From a bacterium (GTDB lineage: Bacteria > Sysuimicrobiota > Sysuimicrobiia > Sysuimicrobiales > Humicultoraceae): a DNA stretch of 13,254 bases. This document shows positions 2,570 through 13,254 of this stretch, in pieces (the stretch's first letter is position 1; each line of letters begins with the position of its first letter). Under the pieces are notes generated by a model, which had not been told where the DNA came from, searched no databases, and worked only from the letters and a program-made list of their open reading frames with translations. The translations under genes were made by a program, and so were the position numbers. Location of the stretch: the NCBI GenBank assembly GCA_041497675.1, contig JBGQGY010000102.1, forward strand, positions 1 through 13,254. The letters are read 5' to 3'.

Positions 2570-4027
2570 GTGACGCGCATTAGCCTGAAGGTCAAGTTCA
2601 TCCTGGCCTTCGTCGGCCTGACGGTCTTGTTTGCCGCGACGTTCGGCGCGCTCGCCACCCGGCGGCTGCGCGAAGTGTTGCTGGAACAGGTACGCATCCG
2701 CGCGAAGATCGTTGTCGAGGACTTCGCGAGCGAAGCCGGCCGCTTTATCGTCACGCCTGAAGGCATTACCGACACGCCCATCTCAAGCCGGCCGACCCGC
2801 CGGCTGGTGGCCGGCACGATTCTCTACGCGCAGATCGTGCGGGACGGAAAACTGCGATTTACCGACGGACAGGCCGACATGGCCGGGCCGGCCGCGCTGA
2901 TCGGCCAGCCACTGGTCGTCGACGAGCGGCAGACGCTCGACGGTGTGCCGTACATGGACCTCATGCGGGCCATCCCCGAGTTCACGCTCGACCAGCAGAC
3001 GTACGTCCGCGTCGGCTTTCCGCTGGCCGCCGTGTACGCGCGCATCGGAAAGGAGACCCGCCTGATTGCGCTGGCCAGCCTTGGTCTCGTGGCGGCGGGC
3101 ATCATCGCAGCGTTCGTCCTCCAACGCGCGATCCTCGGGCCCGTCGACCGGATGACCGGCGCCATCCGCCGGCTGCGGGGCGGCGACTACTCCGCGCGCG
3201 TCGAAGCCCGGATGAGCGATGAGCTCCAGCTCCTGGGCGAGGAATTCAACACGATGGCGTCGGCAATCGAGGTGCGCGACCTCGAGCTCGCCAGGATCAA
3301 TCGTGAGCTGGCCGAGGTCAACGAGGCGCTGCGCAAGGCCAACCGCATCAAGGACGAGTTCTCCGCCGCGATGAGCCACGAGTTGAAGACGCCGCTGCAC
3401 GCGATTCGCGCGTATGCGCAACTCGTGCTCGAAGGCATCGATGGGCCGCTGACCGACGCACAGCGCAAGGACCTCGACGCGATCCTGGCGGCGGGTGATC
3501 ACCTGCTCCACCTCATCGAAGGGATCCTGCGCTACTCGGCGCTGGAGGCCGGCGGCATCGTCCCGCAGATCGGTGAGGTCAAGATCGCCGAGGCCCTGGA
3601 GGCGGCACGCCAAAATGTCGACCACGTCGCGAGGGCCAAGGGGCTGCCCATCGACGTGCGCACGGACGGCGCGGCGACCGTGCGAGCCGACGAGACGATG
3701 CTGCGCCAGATCCTGATCAACCTGCTGCACAACGCGTTGAAGTACACGCCGCGCGGGCGGATCATGGTCACGACGTCGGTGCAGAACGGGCAGGTAACGT
3801 TCGCCGTCGCCGACACAGGTCCCGGCATCCCGCCGGAGGACGCCGGGGCGGTCTTCGAACCGTTCAGGCGGGCCGGTCACGCCGCAAAGCGCGAGATCGA
3901 CGGGATCGGTCTGGGTCTGGCCGTCGTGAAACGCTACGTCGAGTTGTTGGGCGGCCGGATCTGGTTCGAGAGCGGCGGCAGCGGGACGACATTCTACTTC
4001 ACGATGCCAAAAGGGAGCGACGGATGA
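2570..4027 (+). CDS. Membrane sensor histidine kinase (2 TM, periplasmic domain, HAMP, HisKA, HATPase_c)
   Basis: H-box 'SHELKTPL', N-box 'QILINLLHNALKY', G1 'DTGPGI', F 'FEPF', G2 'GIGLGL', HAMP 'GPVDRM...DELQLLGEEFNTMA'. Start placed at GTG 2570 rather than TTG 2549, which overlaps the terminator T-run. Confidence 0.95.
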   Translation: MTRISLKVKFILAFVGLTVLFAATFGALATRRLREVLLEQVRIRAKIVVEDFASEAGRFIVTPEGITDTPISSRPTRRLVAGTILYAQIVRDGKLRFTDGQADMAGPAALIGQPLVVDERQTLDGVPYMDLMRAIPEFTLDQQTYVRVGFPLAAVYARIGKETRLIALASLGLVAAGIIAAFVLQRAILGPVDRMTGAIRRLRGGDYSARVEARMSDELQLLGEEFNTMASAIEVRDLELARINRELAEVNEALRKANRIKDEFSAAMSHELKTPLHAIRAYAQLVLEGIDGPLTDAQRKDLDAILAAGDHLLHLIEGILRYSALEAGGIVPQIGEVKIAEALEAARQNVDHVARAKGLPIDVRTDGAATVRADETMLRQILINLLHNALKYTPRGRIMVTTSVQNGQVTFAVADTGPGIPPEDAGAVFEPFRRAGHAAKREIDGIGLGLAVVKRYVELLGGRIWFESGGSGTTFYFTMPKGSDG

Positions 4028-4695
4028 AGATCCTCGTGGTGGAAGACGACGCCCGGTCGAGGGACCTGCTGACGAAATACCTCGGCGCCAAGGGCCATGA
4101 AGTCTCGGCGGCCGAAGACGGCAGCCGGGCGCTCACGGCGGTCGTCTCCGTCTCGCCCGACTTGATTCTGCTTGACGTCAACCTGCCCGAACTCGATGGG
4201 TGGGCGGTGCTCGACGCCGTCCGCAAGTTCAGCCAGGTGCCCGTCATCATGGTGACGGTGCGGGACGCGGCGCAGGACAAGGTCGCGGGGCTCGATCTGG
4301 GCGCCGACGACTACGTGACGAAACCGTTCGATCTCCGCGAACTCGATGCCCGGATCAGCGCCGTCATGCGCCGGTACCAGGCGACGGTGCCGCAGGTGAT
4401 CCGCACCGAGGAGCTCGTCATCGATGACGAGCGCAAAGAGGTGGTCGTCCGCGGCGAGGGGATCGCCCTCTCCCCGAAGGAATATGAGCTGCTGCGGCTG
4501 CTGGCGTCCAAACCAGGCAAGGTCTATTCGACCGACGAGATCCTGGCCGCCGTGTGGCCCAACCGCGACGCCGCCGCGGCCGAGGACGTGAAAAAGTACG
4601 TCCACATGCTGCGAAACAAGGTCGAACGCGACCCCGGGGATCCCAAGATCATCGTCACGGTACGCGGGTTCGGATACCGGTTCGGGCAGACGTAA
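4024..4695 (+). CDS. OmpR/PhoB-family DNA-binding response regulator
   Basis: Receiver domain 'ILVVEDD', 'ILLDVNLP', 'GADDYVTKPF' and winged-helix 'LSPKEYELL...LRNKVE...IVTVRGFGYRF'. ATGA overlap with the kinase stop. Confidence 0.96.
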   Translation: MKILVVEDDARSRDLLTKYLGAKGHEVSAAEDGSRALTAVVSVSPDLILLDVNLPELDGWAVLDAVRKFSQVPVIMVTVRDAAQDKVAGLDLGADDYVTKPFDLRELDARISAVMRRYQATVPQVIRTEELVIDDERKEVVVRGEGIALSPKEYELLRLLASKPGKVYSTDEILAAVWPNRDAAAAEDVKKYVHMLRNKVERDPGDPKIIVTVRGFGYRFGQT

Positions 4696-4697
4696 GG

Positions 4698-4703
4698 TAT
4701 ACT
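4698..4703 (+). promoter_or_regulatory. -10 element (TATACT) for tRNA-Ser, possibly also lepB
   Basis: TATACT lies just after the regulator stop and 16 nt before the mature tRNA 5' end. Confidence 0.55.
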
Positions 4704-4719
4704 GGGTGCCACGGGCCGC

Positions 4720-4811
4720 GGAGGGGTGCGAGAGCGGCCGAATCGGCACGCCTGGAGAGCGTGTAGGTGGGGGAACCCGCCTCGTGGGTTCAAATCCCAC
4801 CCCCTCCGCCA
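4720..4811 (+). tRNA. tRNA-Ser(GGA)
   Basis: Acceptor stem GGAGGGG/CCCCTCC, discriminator G and encoded CCA. Anticodon arm CACGC-CTGGAGA-GCGTG. Long variable arm (AGGTGGG-GGAA-CCCGCCT). T arm GTGGG-TTCAAAT-CCCAC. Confidence 0.96.
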
Positions 4812-4852
4812 TGCATGCTGCCAGCCACCACCCTGAGGGTCGGAGAGACGCG

Positions 4853-5437
4853 ATGTCAGAGGATTTCCGCAACGAACCACTACCCAGCTCGAAGGTGATC
4901 GCTGGAGCGGCGGGTTGGCGGCGGGCCGGGCGCGGCGCGCTCGATTTCGCCAAGACCCTAGTGATCGCGTTCCTGCTGGCTCAACTCGTCATGGTGTCGG
5001 TCGCCCAGGCGTTTCAGGTCGAGCAGTACTCAATGGAACCCACGCTGCTGCCCCACGACCGGGTGCTGGTCAACAAATTCATCTATCGGGTCCGCGAACC
5101 GCAGCGGGGCGACGTAATCGTCCTGCACTATCCACGCGACCCCAGCCGCAACTACATCAAGCGTATCGTCGCGCTCCCCGGCGACCGTGTGGAGATCCGC
5201 AACGGGCATCTGTACATCAACAATAGCTCCGTTCAAGAAGTCTACATCAATGGGCAGCCCTCAGGTGACTACGGGCCGGAGGCCGTGCCGGATGGTTCGT
5301 ACTTCGTCTTAGGGGACAACCGGAACAACAGCGAGGATAGCCGCGCATTTGGGTTCCTCAAGCGGAGTCAGGTGGTCGGCCGGGCGGTCCTGATCTACTG
5401 GCCGCCCCAGCGCATGCGGCTGCTCCATAGCCCGTAG
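4853..5437 (+). CDS. lepB: Signal peptidase I (S26 family)
   Basis: One TM helix, then catalytic Ser in 'YSMEPTL', Lys in 'YIKRIV', and box E 'GDNRNNSEDSR'. Start moved to ATG 4853, downstream of the tRNA, with GGAGA upstream. Confidence 0.95.
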   Translation: MSEDFRNEPLPSSKVIAGAAGWRRAGRGALDFAKTLVIAFLLAQLVMVSVAQAFQVEQYSMEPTLLPHDRVLVNKFIYRVREPQRGDVIVLHYPRDPSRNYIKRIVALPGDRVEIRNGHLYINNSSVQEVYINGQPSGDYGPEAVPDGSYFVLGDNRNNSEDSRAFGFLKRSQVVGRAVLIYWPPQRMRLLHSP

Positions 5438-5443
5438 ACCGCG

Positions 5444-7168
5444 TCACGCGTCGTCGGTGGTGTCGTCCTTCTGCTGTTCGCGGTCGCGGATCTCGCGACG
5501 CAGCGCCTTGCCGAGAAACGTCTTGGGGATCTCCGCAACGATCTCAAACCGGCGTGGCACCTTGTACGTGGAGAGCTGCTGCGCGCAGTAGTCCCGCAAC
5601 TCGCGCTTGAACGTCCGCTCGTCGCCGCCGTTCCTCAGGACGACGTGGGCCACCAGCACCTCGCCGCGGATGCGGTGTTTGACACCGACCACCGCGGCCT
5701 CTTTTACCTTGGGGTGTGTGTAGAGCACTTCTTCGATCTCGCGCGGAAACACCTTGAACCCGCCGATGATGACCATATCCTTCTTGCGGTCTTCGATGAA
5801 GAAGTAGCCGTCTGAATCCATCCTGGCGATGTCGCCCGTGTAGAGCCAGCCGTTGCGGAGGGTCTGGTCGGTCTCGCCGGGGTTGTTCCAATACCCCTTC
5901 ATGACCTGCGGGCCGCGCACGACGAGTTCACCGACCTCATTCAGGCCGAGGTCGCGCGTGCCGCTTTCGACGTCGACGATCTTGGCGTCTGTCGACGGCA
6001 CCGGGATCCCGATCGAGGCGACCTTGCGCGTGCCATACACTGGATTGGCGTGGGTCAGCGGGGAGGCCTCGGACATCCCAAAACCCTCGGTGATCCGCCC
6101 GCCCGTCAGCTCCTCAAACCGCCGCTGTACCTCAGCGGGCAGGGGGGCCGATCCGGACACGCACGCCCGGATCGACTTCAAGTTGTACTTCTCCACGTCG
6201 CGCAACTGATTGATCGCCAGGTACATGGCCGGGACGCCGGGGAAGATAGTAGGTTGGTACTTCGGCACGGCCTCGACGACGGTCTTCACGTCGAAGAGTT
6301 TCATCAACAGCATGATATTCACCGCGCCGATGGCCACCGACAGGTTCATGCACACGGTCATGCCAAAGACGTGAAAGAACGGTACCACCGAGAGAATGCG
6401 CTCTTGACCTTCCTTGACGTCGGTCAGCCAACTGCGGCACTGCAGGCAGTTGCTCACCAGGTTGCGGTGGGTCAGCGCCGCCGCTTTTGGCACGCCCGTG
6501 GTCCCGCCGGTGTACTGGAGCACCGCGACGTCTTCCTGGCTCACGATCGGGCGCTGGTCGAGCCTGGGCCCGCCGAGGAGGTCCATGAACGGGACGATCC
6601 CGGGCCCCGTCGGGAGGACGTCCCCTTCCTTCTTCGCCTTCAAGAGCCCGTAGAGCAGCCGCCACTTCGTCGGGAAGAAATCGTGCAGATTGGTGACCAC
6701 GGCCGCCTGCACGTCCGTTTGCGCGCGGACGTCACTCAGGGTCCCATACAGTCTCGACAGCGTGACCGCGAATGTCGCGCCCGAATCCTTCAGGTTGAAC
6801 GCCAGGTCTCGTCCTTTGTACAGCGGGTTGACCTGCACCAGCGCGCCGCCGGCCTTCCAGGCGCCAAAGGCCGCGATGACGTACTGCGGGCAGTTGGGCA
6901 GCATGATGGCGACGCGGTCGCCGGGCTTCAACCCACGGTCGATCAGCGCGCGGGCGAACCGGTCGGTCAGCTCGTCGAGCTGCGCATAGGTGATGCGCCG
7001 GTCAAAGTTGGGGCCAACCTGGATCAGCGCGTCCTGGCCGGGATACGTCTTTGCGCTGTGCGCGAGAAATCCATGGACGGGATGCGTGGGCAACTGAAGC
7101 GTCCGGGGAACGCCCGGCTCATAGAACCGATACCAAGACCGGTCTGCCGGCGACTCGTGGGCCTGCAC
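5444..7168 (-). CDS. fadD: Long-chain-fatty-acid--CoA ligase (AMP-binding, FadD/LcfA-like)
   Basis: P-loop 'YTGGTTGVPK', 'EGFGMSEASP', 'RGPQVMKGYW', 'WLYTGDIA', 'DRKKDMVI', terminal 'PKTFLGK'. GTG start preceded by GGAGGG. Confidence 0.92.
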   Translation of the reverse strand: MQAHESPADRSWYRFYEPGVPRTLQLPTHPVHGFLAHSAKTYPGQDALIQVGPNFDRRITYAQLDELTDRFARALIDRGLKPGDRVAIMLPNCPQYVIAAFGAWKAGGALVQVNPLYKGRDLAFNLKDSGATFAVTLSRLYGTLSDVRAQTDVQAAVVTNLHDFFPTKWRLLYGLLKAKKEGDVLPTGPGIVPFMDLLGGPRLDQRPIVSQEDVAVLQYTGGTTGVPKAAALTHRNLVSNCLQCRSWLTDVKEGQERILSVVPFFHVFGMTVCMNLSVAIGAVNIMLLMKLFDVKTVVEAVPKYQPTIFPGVPAMYLAINQLRDVEKYNLKSIRACVSGSAPLPAEVQRRFEELTGGRITEGFGMSEASPLTHANPVYGTRKVASIGIPVPSTDAKIVDVESGTRDLGLNEVGELVVRGPQVMKGYWNNPGETDQTLRNGWLYTGDIARMDSDGYFFIEDRKKDMVIIGGFKVFPREIEEVLYTHPKVKEAAVVGVKHRIRGEVLVAHVVLRNGGDERTFKRELRDYCAQQLSTYKVPRRFEIVAEIPKTFLGKALRREIRDREQQKDDTTDDA

Positions 7169-7312
7169 GATGTTCCCTCCCGGGCGAAACGGTAGGGCGG
7201 AGGTTCAAGTGGCAGGTCAGCAAATCCTGCAGGGGCACCCGCAATCGGCGTCTACGCTCGCCGATGTTCAGTTCTGGAGTCGCGGCCTCTTGCCCATGGT
7301 GTCGCGGGGAAG

Positions 7313-7346
7313 TAGAATGTAAGGAATATATTAGAAAAGTAAGGAA
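7313..7346 (+). promoter_or_regulatory. Toxin-antitoxin promoter/operator: -10 TAGAAT plus direct repeat TAGAA..GTAAGGAA
   Basis: AT-rich patch. TAGAATGTAAGGAA (7313-7326) and TAGAAAAGTAAGGAA (7332-7346) lie just upstream of RBS GGAGGG and the antitoxin ATG. Confidence 0.6.
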
Positions 7347-7360
7347 CCGGAGGGATCCCA

Positions 7361-7627
7361 ATGGCCACGGCGCGCGTGACATCCAAGGGGCAGATCACGG
7401 TCCCCAAAGCGATTCGTGAGAAGTTGGGCGTGGAACCTGGCGATGTGTTGGAGTTCATCGACAACGGGCGACGCCTGGAAGTGCGGGCCGTGAAACGCCG
7501 CAGCCTGAGAGAATTTCGGGGCGTATTCCGCGTGCCACAAGCGATCCCGTTTGAGCAAGAACGCGCTCGGGCCTGGGCGGCGCAGACTGGACGGCTCAGA
7601 CAAGGAGTCCCAAAGCGCCGTGGCTGA
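7361..7627 (+). CDS. vapB: AbrB/MazE/SpoVT-family antitoxin (VapB-type)
   Basis: 'ARVTSKGQITVPKAIREKLGVEPGDVLEF' is the swapped-hairpin AbrB signature, and the gene lies directly upstream of a PIN gene. Confidence 0.92.
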   Translation: MATARVTSKGQITVPKAIREKLGVEPGDVLEFIDNGRRLEVRAVKRRSLREFRGVFRVPQAIPFEQERARAWAAQTGRLRQGVPKRRG

Positions 7628-8039
7628 AGCATTGCTCGACGCCAATATCATCCTGCGATATCTGACCGATGAGCCCCGCGAGCTTGCTGATAGGGCGGCG
7701 CGAATCTTGGAGGCTTTGGAGGATGGGGGAGTCCGCCCAGTTGTCGCCGCGCTGACGTTGGGGGAAGTTGTGTTCGTCCTGGAGTCTGTGTACGGTTGGA
7801 AGCGACATCGGGTCGCTACTGAGCTCCTGGCCATCGTGTCCGCCTCCGTGATCGAATTCCTTGAGCAGAAGACGATCACTCAGGCGCTGCGCTGGTACCG
7901 GGAATTCGGAACCGTTCACTTTGCCGACGCGTACATCGCGGCCGTAGCATCGGAGCGGAAGAGTCCGGTGATTTCCTTCGATCGAGGCATCCGAAGACTT
8001 CCCAACGTCAAGGTCATCGACGCGCCCGAGCACCTCTGA
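7620..8039 (+). CDS. vapC: PIN-domain ribonuclease toxin (VapC-type)
   Basis: GTG 7620 overlaps the antitoxin end by 8 nt. The acidic tetrad is present: 'LLDANII', 'LGEVV', 'FADAYI', 'SFDRGI'. 139 aa. Confidence 0.92.
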   Translation: MAEALLDANIILRYLTDEPRELADRAARILEALEDGGVRPVVAALTLGEVVFVLESVYGWKRHRVATELLAIVSASVIEFLEQKTITQALRWYREFGTVHFADAYIAAVASERKSPVISFDRGIRRLPNVKVIDAPEHL

Positions 8040-10368
8040 ACGTCTTCGTGCCCGGGCTCGGTAGCCGCACGCTGTGAAGCCGGCGAGCGAGTAGATAGCT
8101 GCCGATCACGAAGCTCGCGGCCGCGATCTGCAGCGCGACACCTTCCCACGTGGCGAACACGCCGAACCACAGGCCCATCCAGTACGGCAGGTCCACGCCC
8201 TGCAACGGGTGGATCGGGAGCCAGCCAACCACCTGCATCGAGCGCACCGCGTGGCCGACGAGTTGAAGCAGGACGGCGCCGATCAGGATTCCCGTGGCGA
8301 TGAGCATCCGTTTGTACGGCAGCCGTGTCTGAAGGCGAAAGAGGACGGCGCCGACCAGGACCGTCGCCGCCAGCCCAAGGAGACCACCCGCGACGGATGG
8401 GCCAATACCGGCTTCAACCCCGAGCGCCTGCAAGAACAGTACGCTCTCGAAGCCCTCGCGGTACACGCTGGCAAATCCCAGCGCGACCAGACCGGTCGTA
8501 CGGCCGACCTCGCGGCGCAAGAGGCGCGACTTCCGACCATGAAAACCGGCCAGCCGGTCCGTCCAATACAGGTCGTGCAGAAACCAGTTGGTCACCAGGA
8601 GCAAGACGACAATGGCGATGATCGACACCACGGCCTCGAGCCGCTCGCCGTACCCGGCCAACGTCGCGAGGGTATGGCGCGCTGCCACCCACGTCAACAG
8701 TGTCGCCGCGCCCGCCGCGGCGGCTCCCCACCACAACGGCAGTCGCAACTCCCTGCGGGCTCCCTGCTTGAGACTGCCAAGCAGCGACGCGAGCACGAGC
8801 ACCGCTTCGAGCCCCTCCCGGAACACGACAACGGCGGCATTGATCAGGACGGCGCCCGGTGCCGCGGTGCCGGCGATCGCGCGGCGCGCGGCGTCGAGAT
8901 ACCCGTCGAGCGCGGCGCTGGCGCCGCGGATCACCGCCGGTGCGGCGCGGCGAGACAACAGCTCCGCCAGCCCATGGCCCGCCGTGCCTCCATACCACAT
9001 CAGGTCCTCGATCGGCACCACGAGGTGCGGCGCAAACGCCTTGAGCTTGGCTTCGGGTCCGGCTTCAATGAGCGCGTACGCCTCCAGGCGCGGCGTTTCC
9101 GCGACATCGTAGCGCTCCTCGCGCACCGCCGCTTCCATGCGGTCGAGCGCCGCGGCGACGAGGTCGAAGTCGGCCGCGGTTTCCCTGCGGCGCCAGGACG
9201 GCGGCATGACTTGGGTGATGAGCGTCAGGATGTCCAGCGCCTGCGTGCGCACGGCTTGGGGCTCCGGAGCCGGGATCCGATGGTCGGCATCGGCCAGCGT
9301 GCGTCCCAAGGCGTCGAGGAGTTCGGCGATCCTGGCTGTCTCCGCCGGATTTCGCTGCTCGAGGACGTCCCGCACGTCGGCAAAGGCCGATGCGGCGGCA
9401 TTGCGGAATGCAATGGCTTCGCGTAACTCCAAATCGATCGTCACGCGGCCGCCGCGCACGCCCCGCGCATACTCGACCGGTACGAGTTCGAGAAACCGCA
9501 AGAGCTGCGCTCCACGCCGTGCCTGTTCGCGCGGGCTCAGCGGCGCCGCGCGAAATCCGCGCAGGGTCGCGGCGATCTGTGTGAGCACTTCGTCCAGGGG
9601 GCGTCCCGCGAGCGCATGATCGCGCAACTGCTCTAGCCGCCGATCGAGCCGGGCCGCTTCGCCGGGTCCGCGCTGGGCCGAAAACGCCGGTGCGAGGATC
9701 GCAAAGTACCCCTGGGCCAGCGCCGCCGTCTCCGCCCGGCGAGTGGGAAATCCACGCTGAGCCGCCGCGGCCACATCTCTGAGTGCTTCGTTGAATCGGG
9801 CCTGATAGGTGTCGAGAACATCGGCCCGAACTGCCGCGAGCGCCTCATCGGCGCTGATGGCGCCGGCAGCCACGTCCGCCAGGGCCACGGTTGCGTCGGC
9901 GTTGGGTCGGGAGAAGCGCGTCGCGTGGCGATACTCGCGCACGCCGAGCCACCGGCGTGCCTCCCCGATGCGGCCGGTCTTGAGCGAGGCTTCGACCGTC
10001 TCGAAGCTGCCGGCCAGCACGGCAGTCCAGATCTGCGCCCGCGCGGCCGCAAAACCGGCCGGATCACGCGCCGCCTGCGCGCCCCTCGCCAGGTCAAATC
10101 CGGTACGGACGCGCCGGTCGGCGGCGATCGCGGTCACACGGAAGGTCGGGTGAAACGTGCCGGCATAGGCGCCGGCAAGCGCGATCAGCATGTCGGCCGC
10201 CTGGCGACCGTCGCCGCCGGCAAGGGTGAGCTGAGCGGCAAGCAGGCCGGTGCGAATCCCCTCGGCGGCCTCGAGAGGGGAGGCGCCCGCCGCGTGAGCA
10301 AGGGGGGCCAGACCCAGCAGGAAAGCCAGCAGTCCGGCCAATCCCGCGAATCTGCTGGAGCGCGTCAC
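8014..10368 (-). CDS. FTR1/EfeU-family iron (metal) permease with a large N-terminal periplasmic helical extension
   Basis: Two RExxE motifs, REGLE (8806-8820) and REGFE (8446-8460), sit in a C-terminal multi-TM domain. Signal peptide 'MTRSSRFAGLAGLLAFLLGLAPLAHA' is followed by about 480 aa of Ala-rich helices. Confidence 0.9.
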   Translation of the reverse strand: MTRSSRFAGLAGLLAFLLGLAPLAHAAGASPLEAAEGIRTGLLAAQLTLAGGDGRQAADMLIALAGAYAGTFHPTFRVTAIAADRRVRTGFDLARGAQAARDPAGFAAARAQIWTAVLAGSFETVEASLKTGRIGEARRWLGVREYRHATRFSRPNADATVALADVAAGAISADEALAAVRADVLDTYQARFNEALRDVAAAAQRGFPTRRAETAALAQGYFAILAPAFSAQRGPGEAARLDRRLEQLRDHALAGRPLDEVLTQIAATLRGFRAAPLSPREQARRGAQLLRFLELVPVEYARGVRGGRVTIDLELREAIAFRNAAASAFADVRDVLEQRNPAETARIAELLDALGRTLADADHRIPAPEPQAVRTQALDILTLITQVMPPSWRRRETAADFDLVAAALDRMEAAVREERYDVAETPRLEAYALIEAGPEAKLKAFAPHLVVPIEDLMWYGGTAGHGLAELLSRRAAPAVIRGASAALDGYLDAARRAIAGTAAPGAVLINAAVVVFREGLEAVLVLASLLGSLKQGARRELRLPLWWGAAAAGAATLLTWVAARHTLATLAGYGERLEAVVSIIAIVVLLLVTNWFLHDLYWTDRLAGFHGRKSRLLRREVGRTTGLVALGFASVYREGFESVLFLQALGVEAGIGPSVAGGLLGLAATVLVGAVLFRLQTRLPYKRMLIATGILIGAVLLQLVGHAVRSMQVVGWLPIHPLQGVDLPYWMGLWFGVFATWEGVALQIAAASFVIGSYLLARRLHSVRLPSPGTKTFRGARARR

Positions 10369-10385
10369 ACCGTTGGACCGGTGAC

Positions 10386-11468
10386 CTACTGCTGGATGGT
10401 CACTCTGAGTCGGACGGCGGCCTGGGAGATCATGCCGGTGACCGCGGTGGCCTGGGCCTGCGTTTCCGCGCCGAGCGTATCGGCTTCTTCCGGCGTGAAC
10501 CGCTTGCCGGCGCGTTCTCTGGCGTGGATGCCGGCGACAAACATGCGCATGCTCCGCAACCGCTGCCCGATCTGTTCGGCCTGCGCCTGATCCACGGTGC
10601 GGACCAGCGGTGCCACCCCCGCGTAGACCACCTCGAGACCCGCGATGATGTCTTGAATGTCGGCCAGCCGCGAGACGACCACGAAGTCACGTTGGGTGGA
10701 TGCGTTTCCGGCCACGAAGCGCGAATGCTTCCACGATTCGAAGTACTCGTTCATCGTCGGGACCATGACGACGAGCGCGGTGAAGTTGTCCGACACCGTG
10801 GGGGACCAGGCGCGCGCCGCGGTGAGGAGTTCGCCCGAATAGGCATCCAAGGCCGCCGTCCCCGCCTTGAGGACGTTCGCGTCCGGTAGCACCTCACCAA
10901 ACTCGATCCGCCCGTTGCCGTTGAAATCCGCGCGCACTGAGCGGACGCGATATTCGGCAAACGTCCCCCACAACGTACTCTCGGTGACGCCAAAGAGGTT
11001 GCCCGGCTTCTTTAAGATTCGCCCGTCGGGCAGCGTGAGGTCAAAGGGCACGACGTTCGATCCCCCGTCCACCGCCGATGCGCCGGAGTCGAGGATCACG
11101 TCGAACTTCCGCAGCGACGGGACGCCCGCCACGACTCCTTCCATCTGCTCGTACAGCGGGCTGGCGGCGATCCAGGACTGCCGCGCCTGGTGGATCAGGG
11201 CGACGACGACCGCCTTGCGGTCTTTCCACAGCTTTGCGTAGTCGAAGTTGGCGGCTTTGGCCAGATCGTAGTAACGCGAACTGGTATCCGAGAGATCGGC
11301 GGTGTGCTGTTTCATGGTCGAGGCTTTGTCCAACAGATATGCCTTAGCGGCGCCGAGATCGACGGTGACCTCGGGCGCCGCCGACGGGCCCGACGCTGCC
11401 GCGACCGGCCCAAATCCCAGCGGACCCAACATGACGATCACGAACAGCGATGACCAGACACGACGCAT
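10386..11468 (-). CDS. EfeO/imelysin (peptidase M75-like) periplasmic metal-binding protein
   Basis: RBS GGAGGTG (11481-11475) supports ATG 11468. Sec signal without a lipobox Cys. 'ARQSWIAASPLYEQMEGVV' and 'FDVILD' resemble the EfeO ExxE/D region. Located directly upstream of FTR1. Confidence 0.75.
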   Translation of the reverse strand: MRRVWSSLFVIVMLGPLGFGPVAAASGPSAAPEVTVDLGAAKAYLLDKASTMKQHTADLSDTSSRYYDLAKAANFDYAKLWKDRKAVVVALIHQARQSWIAASPLYEQMEGVVAGVPSLRKFDVILDSGASAVDGGSNVVPFDLTLPDGRILKKPGNLFGVTESTLWGTFAEYRVRSVRADFNGNGRIEFGEVLPDANVLKAGTAALDAYSGELLTAARAWSPTVSDNFTALVVMVPTMNEYFESWKHSRFVAGNASTQRDFVVVSRLADIQDIIAGLEVVYAGVAPLVRTVDQAQAEQIGQRLRSMRMFVAGIHARERAGKRFTPEEADTLGAETQAQATAVTGMISQAAVRLRVTIQQ

Positions 11469-11492
11469 GCGCTTCACCTCCACGCGGCTTTC

Positions 11493-11559
11493 ATTGTTGA
11501 CACGTCCGATCAAAAACTCAAGGGAAACCGCTAGCATCTAACAACCACTGTTTGCTAGC
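11493..11559 (-). promoter_or_regulatory. Copy A of a duplicated cis-element (upstream of the imelysin-like gene)
   Basis: Aligns without gaps, at offset 1355, to 12848-12914 (shared blocks ATTGTTGA, CAAGGnAAACCGCTA, TGTTTGCnAGC). Confidence 0.6.
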
Positions 11560-11565
11560 AGCCGC

Positions 11566-12780
11566 TTACCATTTGGCCTCTGCTTCGAAGTGGATGACCC
11601 GCACGTCGCCGAGCATCACTCCTGATACCGGACTCGTCGTCACGGTACCGCCGGCGACCGAGTACGTGTTGTACGTCAGCTTCAGGGAGACGTTGGTGTT
11701 CACGGCGTAGGTCAGACCCGCCGAGAAGATGCTGTAGCTCGGCCCGCCGTCCTTGTAGGCGCCCCACTCGCGGAGCGCGAACACGCCGAGCGCTTCGTGC
11801 AGCCTCAGGTCGAGCCGCGCGCCAAACCCGGTCAGGTTGTCGTTGATATTGAACAGGTTGAAGTCGTCGGGCGTCCAGAACGCGCCCCGCGGTGCCGTCC
11901 CGCCCGGGCCGCCGGGGATGGTGTAGGGCCCGAGGTTCTTGTACCAGACCGTCACCTTAGGCTCGTAGCGTTCCATCTTCGCCAGCGTCTTCAAGTCGAG
12001 CTCCACGTTGGCTTGATAGTGCGAGCGCGCGACGTCGCCCGTCTGCGCGTACCCCGCGTAGGCGAGTACCAGCGTGGCGCCCTCGACGATCGTCACCGAC
12101 AGGTCGGCCCCGATCCCCGCACCGGTGTTGCAGTCCACACCCGGGCACACGCCGGCATCCACGTTGCCCGCGCGGTCCACACGGTAGTTCAGACCCACGA
12201 CCCAGGCGGGTGAGATGGAGAGTTCTGCCCTGGCGCCCATCAGCGATCGGCTCGTCGAAAGATCGGCCAGCGCCCATTGGGCGAACACGAAGATCCGCAC
12301 CGGACCGATCTCCGGCAGCCACAGCTGGATGCCGTCACGCTGATCTTCGTAGAACTCCTCGGCGAGCAGCAGCGGGATGGGTCCAAGGGTGACGACGTCG
12401 CGGCCGATGCGCAGGTTGAGACCGTTGACACCGATCAGGCGACGGATCTCGATGTACAACTGCTGGAGGGTGACGTCGAGCGCTCCCCCCGACTCGTACT
12501 CGAGCTTGGTCAGGGCGGCGATGCTCGCCGATTCGCCGAGAGTAATCCCCAACCGCACCGACAGCTCGCCGCCGCCGATCGTCAATTGACCAGCCGGCCC
12601 GTTGTAGTTGTCGCCGCCGGCGGGGACGCCTGACGCAGACGTGTACTTGAGGATCGGGTTGATCTCGACTTTGAGGGTATCCTCATACGATGTTGACTCG
12701 TCGGACCCCGAGCGGGCCACGACAGGCATGATCATGCACGCCCACAGTAGAGAGAGCAGCACGGCTCCCGCGCGTCTCAT
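11566..12780 (-). CDS. Predicted outer-membrane beta-barrel (porin-like) protein
   Basis: ATG 12780 with GGAGGA at 12797-12792. Signal peptide 'MRRAGAVLLSLLWACMIMPVVA'. Many alternating amphipathic strands (e.g. 'FGARLDLRL', 'SAGLTYAV', 'SLKLTYNTY'). C-terminal beta-signal 'IHFEAEAKW' ending in an aromatic residue. Confidence 0.72.
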   Translation of the reverse strand: MRRAGAVLLSLLWACMIMPVVARSGSDESTSYEDTLKVEINPILKYTSASGVPAGGDNYNGPAGQLTIGGGELSVRLGITLGESASIAALTKLEYESGGALDVTLQQLYIEIRRLIGVNGLNLRIGRDVVTLGPIPLLLAEEFYEDQRDGIQLWLPEIGPVRIFVFAQWALADLSTSRSLMGARAELSISPAWVVGLNYRVDRAGNVDAGVCPGVDCNTGAGIGADLSVTIVEGATLVLAYAGYAQTGDVARSHYQANVELDLKTLAKMERYEPKVTVWYKNLGPYTIPGGPGGTAPRGAFWTPDDFNLFNINDNLTGFGARLDLRLHEALGVFALREWGAYKDGGPSYSIFSAGLTYAVNTNVSLKLTYNTYSVAGGTVTTSPVSGVMLGDVRVIHFEAEAKW

Positions 12781-12847
12781 CGTGTCGCGTGTCCTCCATA
12801 ACCCGGCCGGCTTCCGGCATTCCGGCGCGTGGGTCTTGTCGGAAGCG

Positions 12848-12914
12848 ATTGTTGATGGCAGCGGTAGTGAATGCAAGGAAAACCGCTACTACGTGCAAGC
12901 GATTGTTTGCAAGC
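12848..12914 (-). promoter_or_regulatory. Copy B of the duplicated cis-element (upstream of the beta-barrel gene)
   Basis: Same three blocks at the same spacing as 11493-11559. A candidate - strand -10 (TATGCT) lies at 12921-12916. Confidence 0.6.
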
Positions 12915-12966
12915 CAGCATAGCGGGATAACAATGGCTGGTGGCTGGGGCACGCCGTCCGCGGCGG

Positions 12967-12975
12967 TGGTATGAT
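12967..12975 (+). promoter_or_regulatory. Extended -10 promoter (TGnTATGAT) of the SRP RNA
   Basis: TGGTATGAT ends 6 nt before the predicted SRP RNA 5' end at 12982. Confidence 0.7.
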
Positions 12976-12981
12976 GCCTTT

Positions 12982-13252
12982 GGCCGTGCTAGGTGGGGAG
13001 CTAGCGGTTCCCTGTTACCCGCAATCCGCTACAGCGGGACTGAACTCCCGTCTAGAGGCGCCATCTCGTGGGGCCAGGCCCGCGCACGCAGCGAGGAAGG
13101 CCGGGTCCTGTGCAACGGGAACTGACCAACCCCGCCAGGCCCGGGAGGGAGCAACGGTACGTCAGCGCTCCCGTGTGCCGCAGGGACACCTGGCTGGAGC
13201 CGGCGACGCGGACACCGCTCGGGGGATGGTTGTCGAAGGCGGGTGCACGGCC
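12982..13252 (+). ncRNA. ffs: Large bacterial signal recognition particle RNA (Alu-domain-containing, Bacillus scRNA type)
   Basis: 5' GGCCGTGC pairs with 3' GCACGGCC. The Alu-like 5' domain 'GCCGTGCTAGGTGGGGAGCTAGCGGTTCCCTGTTACCCGCAATCCGCT' resembles B. subtilis scRNA. Helix 8 reads 'CCGCCAGGCCC-GGGA-GGGAGCAACGG'. About 271 nt. Confidence 0.93.
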
Positions 13253-13254
13253 AA

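Follow-up and report, generated by a model that had tools for sequence, protein, structure and literature searches.

A putative EfeU–EfeO-type metal-uptake unit in a Sysuimicrobiota genome, with a host-phylum porin gene in front of a probably imported binder–permease pair

A three-gene unit for metal uptake is predicted on a 13,254-nucleotide stretch of DNA (GenBank assembly GCA_041497675.1, contig JBGQGY010000102.1; hereafter the window) from a bacterium of the family Humicultoraceae in the phylum Sysuimicrobiota. Its co-oriented genes, read from the minus strand in the order barrel, binder, permease, encode a porin-like protein, a secreted imelysin-like protein and a long member of the FTR1 permease family. 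The best explanation, which as a whole is judged slightly likelier to be right than wrong, is that the second and third genes are a widespread, horizontally acquired two-gene module carrying out uptake of the EfeU–EfeO type without the peroxidase EfeB, with a porin of the host in front. The host-phylum porin would probably let the substrate pass the outer membrane passively; the soluble periplasmic binder, having lost its lipid anchor on the move into an outer-membrane host, would capture iron, most likely as Fe(III); and, after docking on the permease's own outer domain, it would pass the metal to the REXXE channel, along a 'minimal' EfeU–EfeO route lacking the EfeB peroxidase. We infer the metal, its oxidation state and the hand-off, and it is only the FTR1 family and its REXXE motifs that point to iron.

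The window is the entire contig C102 of a 3.97-Mb, 272-contig genome (G000), which is 98.6% complete with 3.6% estimated contamination. An earlier note on this DNA had described three co-oriented genes separated by gaps of 97 and 17 nucleotides and bounded by a signal recognition particle (SRP) RNA gene and a toxin–antitoxin (TA) module. Both gaps agree with the coordinates of the open reading frames (ORFs), and both borders were found, the large SRP RNA gene at 176 bits and the module as an AbrB/MazE-type antitoxin with a PIN toxin. The same note had held the unit to be complete without EfeB, a cupredoxin, P19 or a TonB-dependent receptor, and a Pfam search of the unit's proteins indeed found no DyP, cupredoxin, P19, Plug or TonB-dependent-receptor domain. 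The three genes appear to form a compact unit, in which the barrel gene may be co-transcribed with the pair behind it. No promoter-like or terminator-like site was found in the 97-nucleotide spacer between barrel and binder; the scan of 7300–13254 as a whole was uninformative, giving no promoter-like sites (0.7 expected) and two terminator-like sites (3.8 expected). Among the 24 runs listed, no RNA run carrying the unit was found.

The permease, at 784 amino acids, matches the FTR1 profile PF03239 over residues 511–709 at 77.4 bits (cut-off 25.3; E 1.5e-21), and is the only FTR1 protein of its genome. A pair of REXXE motifs, one in the first and one in the fourth membrane helix, defines this family. 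The AlphaFold2 model of the permease (predicted local distance difference test, pLDDT, 88.8) comprises a signal peptide, a helical outer domain, seven long membrane helices between residues 504 and 768 and a basic tail, with the motifs REGLE and REGFE in the first and fourth of these helices; both are at least 90% conserved in 45 long FTR1 sequences. The description of this protein as an extended FTR1 is therefore upheld, its outer domain of about 480 residues standing before the FTR1 region. This long form is common: 2025 homologues were found among the candidates scored, the best 120 of which are 745–837 amino acids long and carry names such as Chloroflexus, Roseiflexus, Herpetosiphonaceae and Caldilinea. 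The outer domain alone retrieved 574 cluster representatives at E ≤ 1e-3, and 45 of the 150 representatives listed have 690–875 amino acids, the shorter ones possibly being fragments. When these 45 long FTR1 proteins were searched against Pfam, FTR1 was matched in 44, and each other family among the 46 matched in no more than two members. A Foldseek search with the whole model returned no match at E ≤ 0.001, a sequence search of the PDB found no relative of the long FTR1 (the best match being a low-complexity one to the ATP synthase b subunit), and a literature search found no published study of the long form. The idea that the outer domain is a duplicated imelysin fold was rejected: hhalign gave the alignment of permease and binder a probability of 1.9%, Foldseek reached the E. 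coli EfeO structure 7wgu only at E 0.81, and VIA-align returned only generic four-helix bundles (Z 9.8–12.4, within the noise of helical models). A lead towards DUF5059 and Nitrososphaerota clusters (Atlas scores 0.77–0.84, with 0.77 for DUF5059) was also discarded, DUF5059 being absent among the 25 Pfam families listed.

The middle gene encodes the imelysin-like binder that the earlier note had recognised, as its 360-residue product matches PF09375 (Peptidase_M75) over residues 90–340 at 65.2 bits, against a cut-off of 23.5 (9.6e-18). It is the genome's only M75 protein, and no cupredoxin domain was matched in it by Pfam, leaving M75 as its sole domain. A longer alternative frame, starting at 11537, would add 23 residues that no homologue aligns. 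Its signal peptide ends AAA-S without a lipobox cysteine; that cysteine is present in 33 of 35 complete binder N-termini, and the two exceptions, with plain signal peptides, are the window binder and its closest relative (87% identical in the alignment, 91% by BLAST). Of its 1595 homologues, the best 120 include named proteins from Chloroflexota only, at about 55–65% identity, with the annotation 'EfeM/EfeO family lipoprotein' or 'imelysin family protein'. Eleven acidic or aromatic positions are invariant in the 39-sequence alignment (Y106, E107, E110, D123, D127, E163, D270, D293, E318, E327 and E335), of which the E107/E110 and D123/D127 spacing resembles the acidic 'Site IV', and E318 the HxxE 'Site III', of EfeM as described in PMC9174327. 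The profile match, secretion signal and HxxE motif all point to an M75-only protein of the EfeM type, for which metal binding is predicted. A sequence search of the PDB found no relative of the binder at E ≤ 0.3, the best E being 0.34.

The structural link between the two proteins is a predicted one. The earlier note had proposed a complex prediction of the binder with the N-terminal domain of the permease; with binder residues 27–360 and permease residues 27–510, each supplied with its own alignment, the two dock at an ipSAE (an interface score derived from predicted aligned errors) of 0.84, with runs at 0.84, 0.80 and 0.90 and the best of three controls at 0.00. That mark is reached by 116 of 157 solved complexes and by 2 of 215 mismatched pairs, counts that apply only roughly here, the alignments having been custom-made. 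At least 61% of contacts are common to the runs, and the pLDDT of the partner is at least 83. The predicted interface involves segments 138–164, 202–213 and 302–320 of the permease, including R147, E314 and E317, and segments 233–249 and 326–353 of the binder, including E327 and E335; searches of the PDB gave no solved complex of an FTR1 protein on which the model could have drawn. The model thus supports binding of the binder to the permease's outer domain, and offers a concrete, testable answer to how EfeO- and EfeM-type proteins meet their permease.

The pairing of these two genes recurs far from this phylum. In all four Chloroflexota loci with upstream sequence, a long FTR1 gene is immediately preceded by the binder gene, and three of these loci hold two long FTR1 genes; at the Chloroflexota locus L012 (2415–5633), a 1072-residue ORF between two long FTR1 genes consists of three tandem binder domains, each aligned by tblastn to the window binder at 40–42% identity, with Pfam M75 unmatched at E ≤ 1e-4. 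In a plasmid collection, 24 records match the long FTR1, and the four covering at least 80% of the protein are all from Deinococcus. Both of the Deinococcus loci examined, on plasmid P1 of Deinococcus gobiensis and pDAETH-3 of D. aetherius, have the binder ('EfeM/EfeO family lipoprotein' or 'imelysin family protein') directly before an 'FTR1 family protein' in the RefSeq annotation, next to an iron ABC transporter in the former and to Nramp and a metal regulator in the latter. These Deinococcus pairs are the same two-gene module, with permeases 45–47% identical to that of the window over residues 114–769, but they have no adjacent barrel gene, and the binder is annotated as a lipoprotein in one of the two records; these carriers, too, have an outer membrane. 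On plasmid pShin-02 of Shinella sp. HZN7 (L069:2497–7968), a binder gene, a DUF4405 gene, a multiheme cytochrome c gene and a long FTR1 gene (29% identical) stand in a row, so that the module here includes a redox component. A large FTR1 subfamily appears to pair only with an M75 binder, although FTR1 permeases are usually described as oxidase-dependent, and cultured carriers exist in D. gobiensis and D. aetherius, which have the pair on plasmids, as well as in the named Chloroflexus and Roseiflexus that match the long FTR1.

It is the barrel that does not travel with this pair. The earlier note had proposed a new architecture of three families, yet neither a barrel homologue nor a DyP gene was found beside the pair in any of the seven other loci (four Chloroflexota, two Deinococcus and one Shinella), so that synteny of the barrel with the other two genes was not seen in these lineages. 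Such an outcome was among those that the note had named as refuting its proposal, and a conserved architecture of three families is not supported. The barrel was also found in none of the 301 Chloroflexota genomes searched and in none of the four Chloroflexota genomes carrying the pair, and therefore is not of Chloroflexota origin. The exceptions may be close at hand: relatives of the barrel, binder and permease at 79–91% identity sit on contigs of one and the same length (13,774), a likely further trio, and in a second relative the barrel and binder are on contigs of equal length (4,391). This circumstantial agreement in lengths suggests that two near relatives keep the arrangement.

The barrel protein itself had been described as small, which it is not: it has 405 amino acids including the signal peptide, and its AlphaFold2 model, built from an alignment of 16 sequences (pLDDT 82; predicted template modelling score, pTM, 0.77), has 18 main strands. 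No Pfam or NCBIfam family was matched, nor was either of the Plug and TonB-dependent-receptor profiles PF07715 and PF00593. In Foldseek searches of the PDB the model matches AlgE (3rbh, E 5e-13) and OmpM1 of Veillonella parvula (8bym, E 2.9e-11), as well as MOMP (5ldt) and OprD/Occ. The closed fold, the signal peptide, the C-terminal aromatic residue (the protein ends ...EAKW) and the presence in the genome of an Omp85/BamA insertase gene all accord with a porin. The barrel shares the porin-type fold of OmpM1 and of the 18-strand porins AlgE, OprD and MOMP (E 5e-13 to 3e-11), but is only 9–14% identical to them, has a CPxxxC loop and lies inside a transport locus rather than serving as a housekeeping tether; unlike OmpM-type tether porins, it has no SLH domain that Pfam could find. 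Two loops stand out in the model: the CPGVDC loop between strands 9 and 10, which judging by the strand order would face outwards, and the acidic loop VVTLGPIPLLLAEEFYEDQRDG, which connects strands 5 and 6, has the consensus LGPIGLLLDE..Y.EDRRDG and might form the constriction of the pore; in it L133, G134, L138–L140, R149, D150 and G151 are invariant across the 16 sequences.

This family belongs to the host's own phylum. A search of 5.8 billion clusters gave only 15 barrel homologues, of which two have an SLH domain. Members occur in 17 of 40 genomes related at the level of genus, family or order; the nearest deeper relatives (P0126–P0129) are 54–58% identical, and a paralogue at 46% identity, also with a CPxxxC loop, lies on contig C12 of the same genome. 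SLH domains are present in the homologues P0132 and P0138, in the genes of eight relatives and in a gene on contig C46 of the window's own genome. In a maximum-likelihood tree of 35 family members, the 22 sequences with a CPxxxC loop form a clade with full support (100 in the Shimodaira–Hasegawa-like approximate likelihood ratio test, SH-aLRT), the loop being absent from the other 13. Inside this clade two SLH-bearing sequences branch first, followed by an SLH-less group of 20 (support 99), which splits into the window's subclade of seven and another of 13. The barrel is best placed, on this phylogeny, as a porin-like member of the host phylum's OmpM-related family, within its SLH-less Cys-loop clade.

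The genes around the clade's members bear on its function. Among the eight close homologues with readable context, the window excluded, four lie beside CopC and/or CopD genes (those on the genome's own contig C12 and in G006, G032 and G001) and one beside ZnuA (G026, contig C94), while two follow AcrB-type pumps of the resistance–nodulation–division (RND) superfamily (L006 and L008) and one has none of these beside it (G026, contig C3). At the genome's own second locus (G000:C12:1796–5785, L048) the paralogue follows a gene for a CopD–YtkA–cytochrome c fusion and a CopC gene, with an ABC-3 metal permease gene 4 kb further on, and the arrangement of CopC/CopD with barrel is repeated in G001, G006 and G032. 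A metagenome scan for barrel relatives found three loci, all of the RND-linked subclade. Distant family members without the Cys loop stand beside GH1 glycosidases or ABC transporters, and five of eight distant SLH-bearing members are near a TonB-dependent receptor and/or TonB gene. The window points to a clade of Cys-loop porins that, in this little-known phylum, is associated with loci for copper, zinc and iron.

How barrel and pair came together can be read, in outline, from the surrounding DNA. The three-gene unit and the TA pair lie on an accessory segment of about 5.7 kb between an acyl-CoA synthetase gene and the SRP RNA gene. The same-genus genome G001 (contig C122) aligns to window positions 3124–7232, then 8011–8051, then 12966–13254, and thereby lacks both the unit and the TA segment; in the same-genus G002 the acyl-CoA synthetase gene is separated from the SRP RNA gene by 570 bases of unrelated sequence, and the same-family G006 and G007 keep the same flanks. 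Because G001 and G002 join the flanks without the unit, the unit is taken as an acquired accessory segment. G001:C122:4134–4178 keeps only the last approximately ten codons of the PIN gene, and the TA pair appears to have been deleted there; this PIN remnant therefore marks the site upstream of the SRP RNA gene as a variable one, at which both gain and loss have happened. One sediment metagenome run (X4) contains the island form as well as a contig in which 7206 is joined to 12966, its shorter side being 30 bases long; either the community may be polymorphic for the segment, or the same flanks may occur in a related species. Depth differences between flank and island carry no weight here, since the depth of a contig is summed over organisms.

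The distribution of the individual genes fits an import of the pair. The binder and the long FTR1 each occur in G000 alone among 41 genomes, the other 40 being relatives from its genus, family and order; the outer domain was found in one of 94 genomes sampled from the phylum (that of the window) and in 18 of 301 Chloroflexota genomes. In 13 of the 40 relatives, G010 included, only a short FTR1 is present (frames of 286–323 amino acids), with 28–36% identity across the permease part. These short FTR1 genes occur without such partners: 53 ORFs were scanned at the 13 loci, and domains of the M75, DyP, P19 or cupredoxin type were matched in none of them. Two of the loci have genes for DtxR-type repressors beside them and two have Fur genes. 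The trio thus reads as a mosaic, by gene content and phylogeny, in which a host-phylum porin from a clade associated with metal loci stands in front of an imported pair, and would show an uptake module refitted for an outer membrane, its anchor lost and a host porin gene placed ahead of it.

The wider genome qualifies two features that the earlier note had attributed to the system, those of being free of oxidases and of TonB. No redox partner of the kind expected for FTR1 permeases is encoded in the unit, and neither DyP (PF04261, a family that the same search detected in 4 of 14 control genomes) nor P19 was matched anywhere in the genome; yet multicopper oxidases at two loci (C68 and C19) and 13 Cupredoxin_1 matches are encoded elsewhere, alongside two FeoB genes, so that the locus is oxidase-free and the genome is not. 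Equally, the unit has no TonB-dependent receptor, but the genome encodes TonB and a single TonB-dependent receptor on contig C46. Of the three partners whose presence elsewhere had been put forward as a check, efeB is therefore missing, while cupredoxin-type proteins and TonB are present. The Omp85/BamA gene and the TonB cluster mark the genome as one that, by its gene content, has an outer membrane. The TonB cluster (G000:C46:2220–7501, L049) contains the receptor, TonB, a RuvX-like gene and a 604-residue SLH-barrel protein; it is complete in G028 and G036 (L054 and L056), and parts of it, a receptor and/or TonB near an SLH porin, are found in G014, G034 and G039. Of the relay proposed from porin through binder to permease, the predicted docking of the last two lends support to one step, whereas freedom from oxidases holds for the locus alone and TonB is available in the genome.

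Nor is a relay without EfeB new, as a minimal ferric route of EfeU and EfeO has already been reported in Bacillus subtilis (Miethke 2013, as cited in PMC9174327), and imelysin-like proteins adjoining Ftr1-type permeases have been described (PMC3143127). The closest known systems are the EfeUOB systems of B. subtilis (YwbLMN) and E. coli, which likewise set a two-REXXE FTR1 permease beside an extracytoplasmic M75 binder; here, however, the genome lacks EfeB/DyP, the binder lacks the cupredoxin domain that EfeO combines with M75, only the window permease, and not EfeU, has the outer domain of about 480 residues, and the first gene of the unit encodes a porin. EfeM of Pseudomonas syringae (PDB 7Q1G), as presented in PMC9174327, is likewise secreted and M75-only, with an HxxE motif and an acidic E..E/D...D patch, but the HxxE histidine is replaced by tyrosine in about half of the window's subfamily, and the EfeM system also has EfeO and EfeB. 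The FetMP system of E. coli and cFtr1–P19 of Campylobacter jejuni are, like the window pair, two-gene combinations of FTR1 with a periplasmic metal-binding partner, although that partner is P19 there and M75 here. FetM also has an N-terminal periplasmic extension. The unit is hence a variant of EfeU/EfeO-type uptake with a locally recruited porin, rather than a wholly new system. Four things are new: a long form of the permease, whose outer domain is uncatalogued and is predicted to serve in docking; the apparent loss, in this host, of the lipid anchor from the binder; a clade of Cys-loop porins; and the seemingly recent mosaic assembly. A broader proposal, offered tentatively and with a likelihood well short of even, is that long FTR1 proteins of Chloroflexota, Deinococcota and others are a self-contained class of oxidase-independent iron importers whose outer domain is the built-in receptor for an EfeM-type binder in ferric hand-off, and that the phylum's SLH-less Cys-loop porins are a new family of metal-selective outer-membrane channels recruited to uptake operons, the window representing a recruitment shortly after a module with a lipoprotein-type binder had entered an outer-membrane host.

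Several observations weigh against the preferred account, and there are alternatives to it. The permease scores far below the NCBIfam equivalog cut-off for EfeU (72.3 bits against 255 for NF041756; 96.3 against 303.8 for TIGR00145), and the histidine of the binder's HxxE motif is not conserved, position 315 being occupied by H in 19 of the 39 binders, by Y in 18 and by Q in two. The barrel might be a mere neighbour, one of several paralogous general porins of this phylum that came to lie next to the imported pair as the island was put together, with no specific role in the pair's transport, which is doubtful though worth keeping in mind: its link to the pair consists of adjacency and of its clade's habit of lying at metal loci, since no other lineage examined has it beside the pair; the 97-nucleotide spacer, wide next to the 17 nucleotides between binder and permease, could hold a separate promoter; and the wider family, with members beside glycosidases and ABC transporters, is not metal-specific. 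The barrel is nonetheless co-oriented with the pair, on the same inserted segment and with no terminator-like site between them, its CPxxxC clade is distinct, with CopC/CopD or ZnuA at five of the eight readable contexts, and two near relatives seem to keep barrel and binder together. The cation moved could also be other than iron (copper, zinc, lead, manganese or a lanthanide), although this is improbable. The barrel's sister clade is tied to CopC/CopD, and the D. aetherius pair has copper-related neighbours, namely genes for a four-helix-bundle copper-binding protein, for DUF305 and for a P-type ATPase of the heavy-metal type. The iron/lead transporter superfamily includes lead importers. 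The EfeM of P. syringae binds Cu2+ and Zn2+ besides iron (PMC9174327). Iron is favoured by the conservation of both REXXE motifs, by iron-linked neighbours elsewhere (the iron ABC transporter of D. gobiensis, flavodoxin and a ferric-type solute-binding protein at L010, and Peripla_BP_2 at L012), and by the window permease being the sole FTR1 of a genome whose relatives, in 13 of 40 cases, carry a short FTR1, with a DtxR-type or Fur gene beside four of those loci.

A redox step could alternatively be supplied in trans, by a multicopper oxidase, a cupredoxin or a cytochrome, a prospect on the unlikely side and on a level with that of the barrel as bystander. The two multicopper-oxidase loci and 13 cupredoxin-type matches of the genome could act in this way, and the multiheme cytochrome c and DUF4405 genes between binder and permease in Shinella show that redox chemistry may matter to such a module; however, no redox gene adjoins the pair in the four Chloroflexota loci, the two Deinococcus loci or the window, and EfeU and EfeO of B. 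subtilis suffice for ferric uptake, as cited in PMC9174327. Conservation of the surfaces involved did not support the docking model on the side of the permease, whose interface is conserved like the rest of its N-terminal domain (mean 2.15 against 2.11, p 0.41) and that of the binder only mildly more so (3.45 against 3.15, p 0.02). An artefact of assembly or binning, by which a Chloroflexota fragment was joined to a contig of this genome, is very improbable. It would explain why the pair's nearest named relatives are Chloroflexota in a 272-contig assembly with some estimated contamination; but the flanks are 83–98% identical to same-genus genomes, contigs from other sediment metagenome runs span 6990–8464, 8410–13010 and 10804–13254, bridging both junctions, the contig has a guanine-plus-cytosine (GC) content of 65.8% against 65.9% for the genome, and the barrel on the same segment is of the host phylum's own family. 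Bridging contigs, syntenic flanks and equal GC content therefore exclude a chimeric contig, and uptake of EfeU–EfeO type by an imported pair behind a host porin is retained as the explanation to be preferred.

The region upstream of the barrel gene offers a lead on how the unit is controlled. It contains the palindrome ATTGTT-N21-AACAAT, the only one of its kind in the 3.97-Mb genome, as well as two copies of AACAATCG that are the only such pair within 120 nucleotides in that genome. The palindrome pattern has seven sites in the 41 genomes, a count that includes genome G019, against none for the reversed control; three of the seven lie upstream of FTR1-type genes, namely the window unit and the short FTR1 genes of G032 and G038. 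As a lead only, this hints that the unit has been put under a native regulator. In seven of the nine regions examined upstream of short FTR1 genes (L035, L039, L041–L044 and L046) there are TTAGGnTAGCCTAAC-like sequences, which we take to resemble an IdeR/DtxR box; a strict pattern for an IdeR-like box and AACAA-N3-TTGTT each have no match in the window's own genome.

Table 1. Features of the window and of its three-gene unit, in window coordinates.
Feature	Position	Strand	Remarks
TA segment, also missing in G001	7233-8010	.	DNA comparison
AbrB/MazE-type antitoxin gene	7361-7627	+	Pfam/NCBIfam profile search
PIN toxin gene	7551-8039	+	Pfam/NCBIfam profile search
Long FTR1 gene	8014-10368	-	GTG start; 784 aa
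Segment with the three-gene unit, absent at the syntenic site of same-genus G001	8052-12965	.	DNA comparison
REGFE (R637-E641), second REXXE motif	8446-8460	-	fourth membrane helix (modelled 623-653)
REGLE (R517-E521), first REXXE motif	8806-8820	-	first membrane helix (modelled 504-532)
Extracytoplasmic N-domain, residues ~27-503 (~480)	8860-10290	-	array of four-helix bundles (modelled), uncatalogued family
Gap between binder and FTR1 genes	10369-10385	-	17 nt
Imelysin-like binder gene	10386-11468	-	start ATG at 11468 behind GGAGGTG
HxxE motif (H315-A-R-E318)	10515-10526	-	E318 invariant in 39/39
Spacer between barrel and binder genes	11469-11565	-	97 nt; imperfect palindrome and TCAACAAT half-site
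Barrel gene	11566-12780	-	start ATG at 12780; Shine-Dalgarno-like GGAGGA upstream
CPGVDC loop (C213-C218)	12130-12147	-	between strands 9 and 10 of the model
Acidic loop VVTLGPIPLLLAEEFYEDQRDG	12331-12396	-	between strands 5 and 6 of the model; consensus LGPIGLLLDE..Y.EDRRDG
Barrel upstream region, candidate operator	12781-12983	-	ATTGTT-N21-AACAAT at 12902-12934
AACAATCG copies upstream of barrel gene	12846-12853, 12900-12907	-	two
Large SRP RNA gene	12984-13250	+	Bacteria_large_SRP, 176 bits; conserved right-hand flank

At its borders the segment meets genes shared with the relatives. The SRP RNA gene is 77–98% identical across the 12 related genomes searched, and at the other end the FTR1 and PIN genes are convergent and overlap by 26 nucleotides (8014–8039). 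Further to the left the window begins with the C-terminal part of an alpha-2-macroglobulin of the bacterial type (bMG10) and with a VanW/G5 protein (13–1373), followed by a 307-residue ORF without a Pfam family (1535–2458), and then by a two-component system, signal peptidase I and the acyl-CoA synthetase, all syntenic with relatives. Its first 141 positions are 100% identical to G000:C111:12147–12287, probably an overlap of two assembly contigs.

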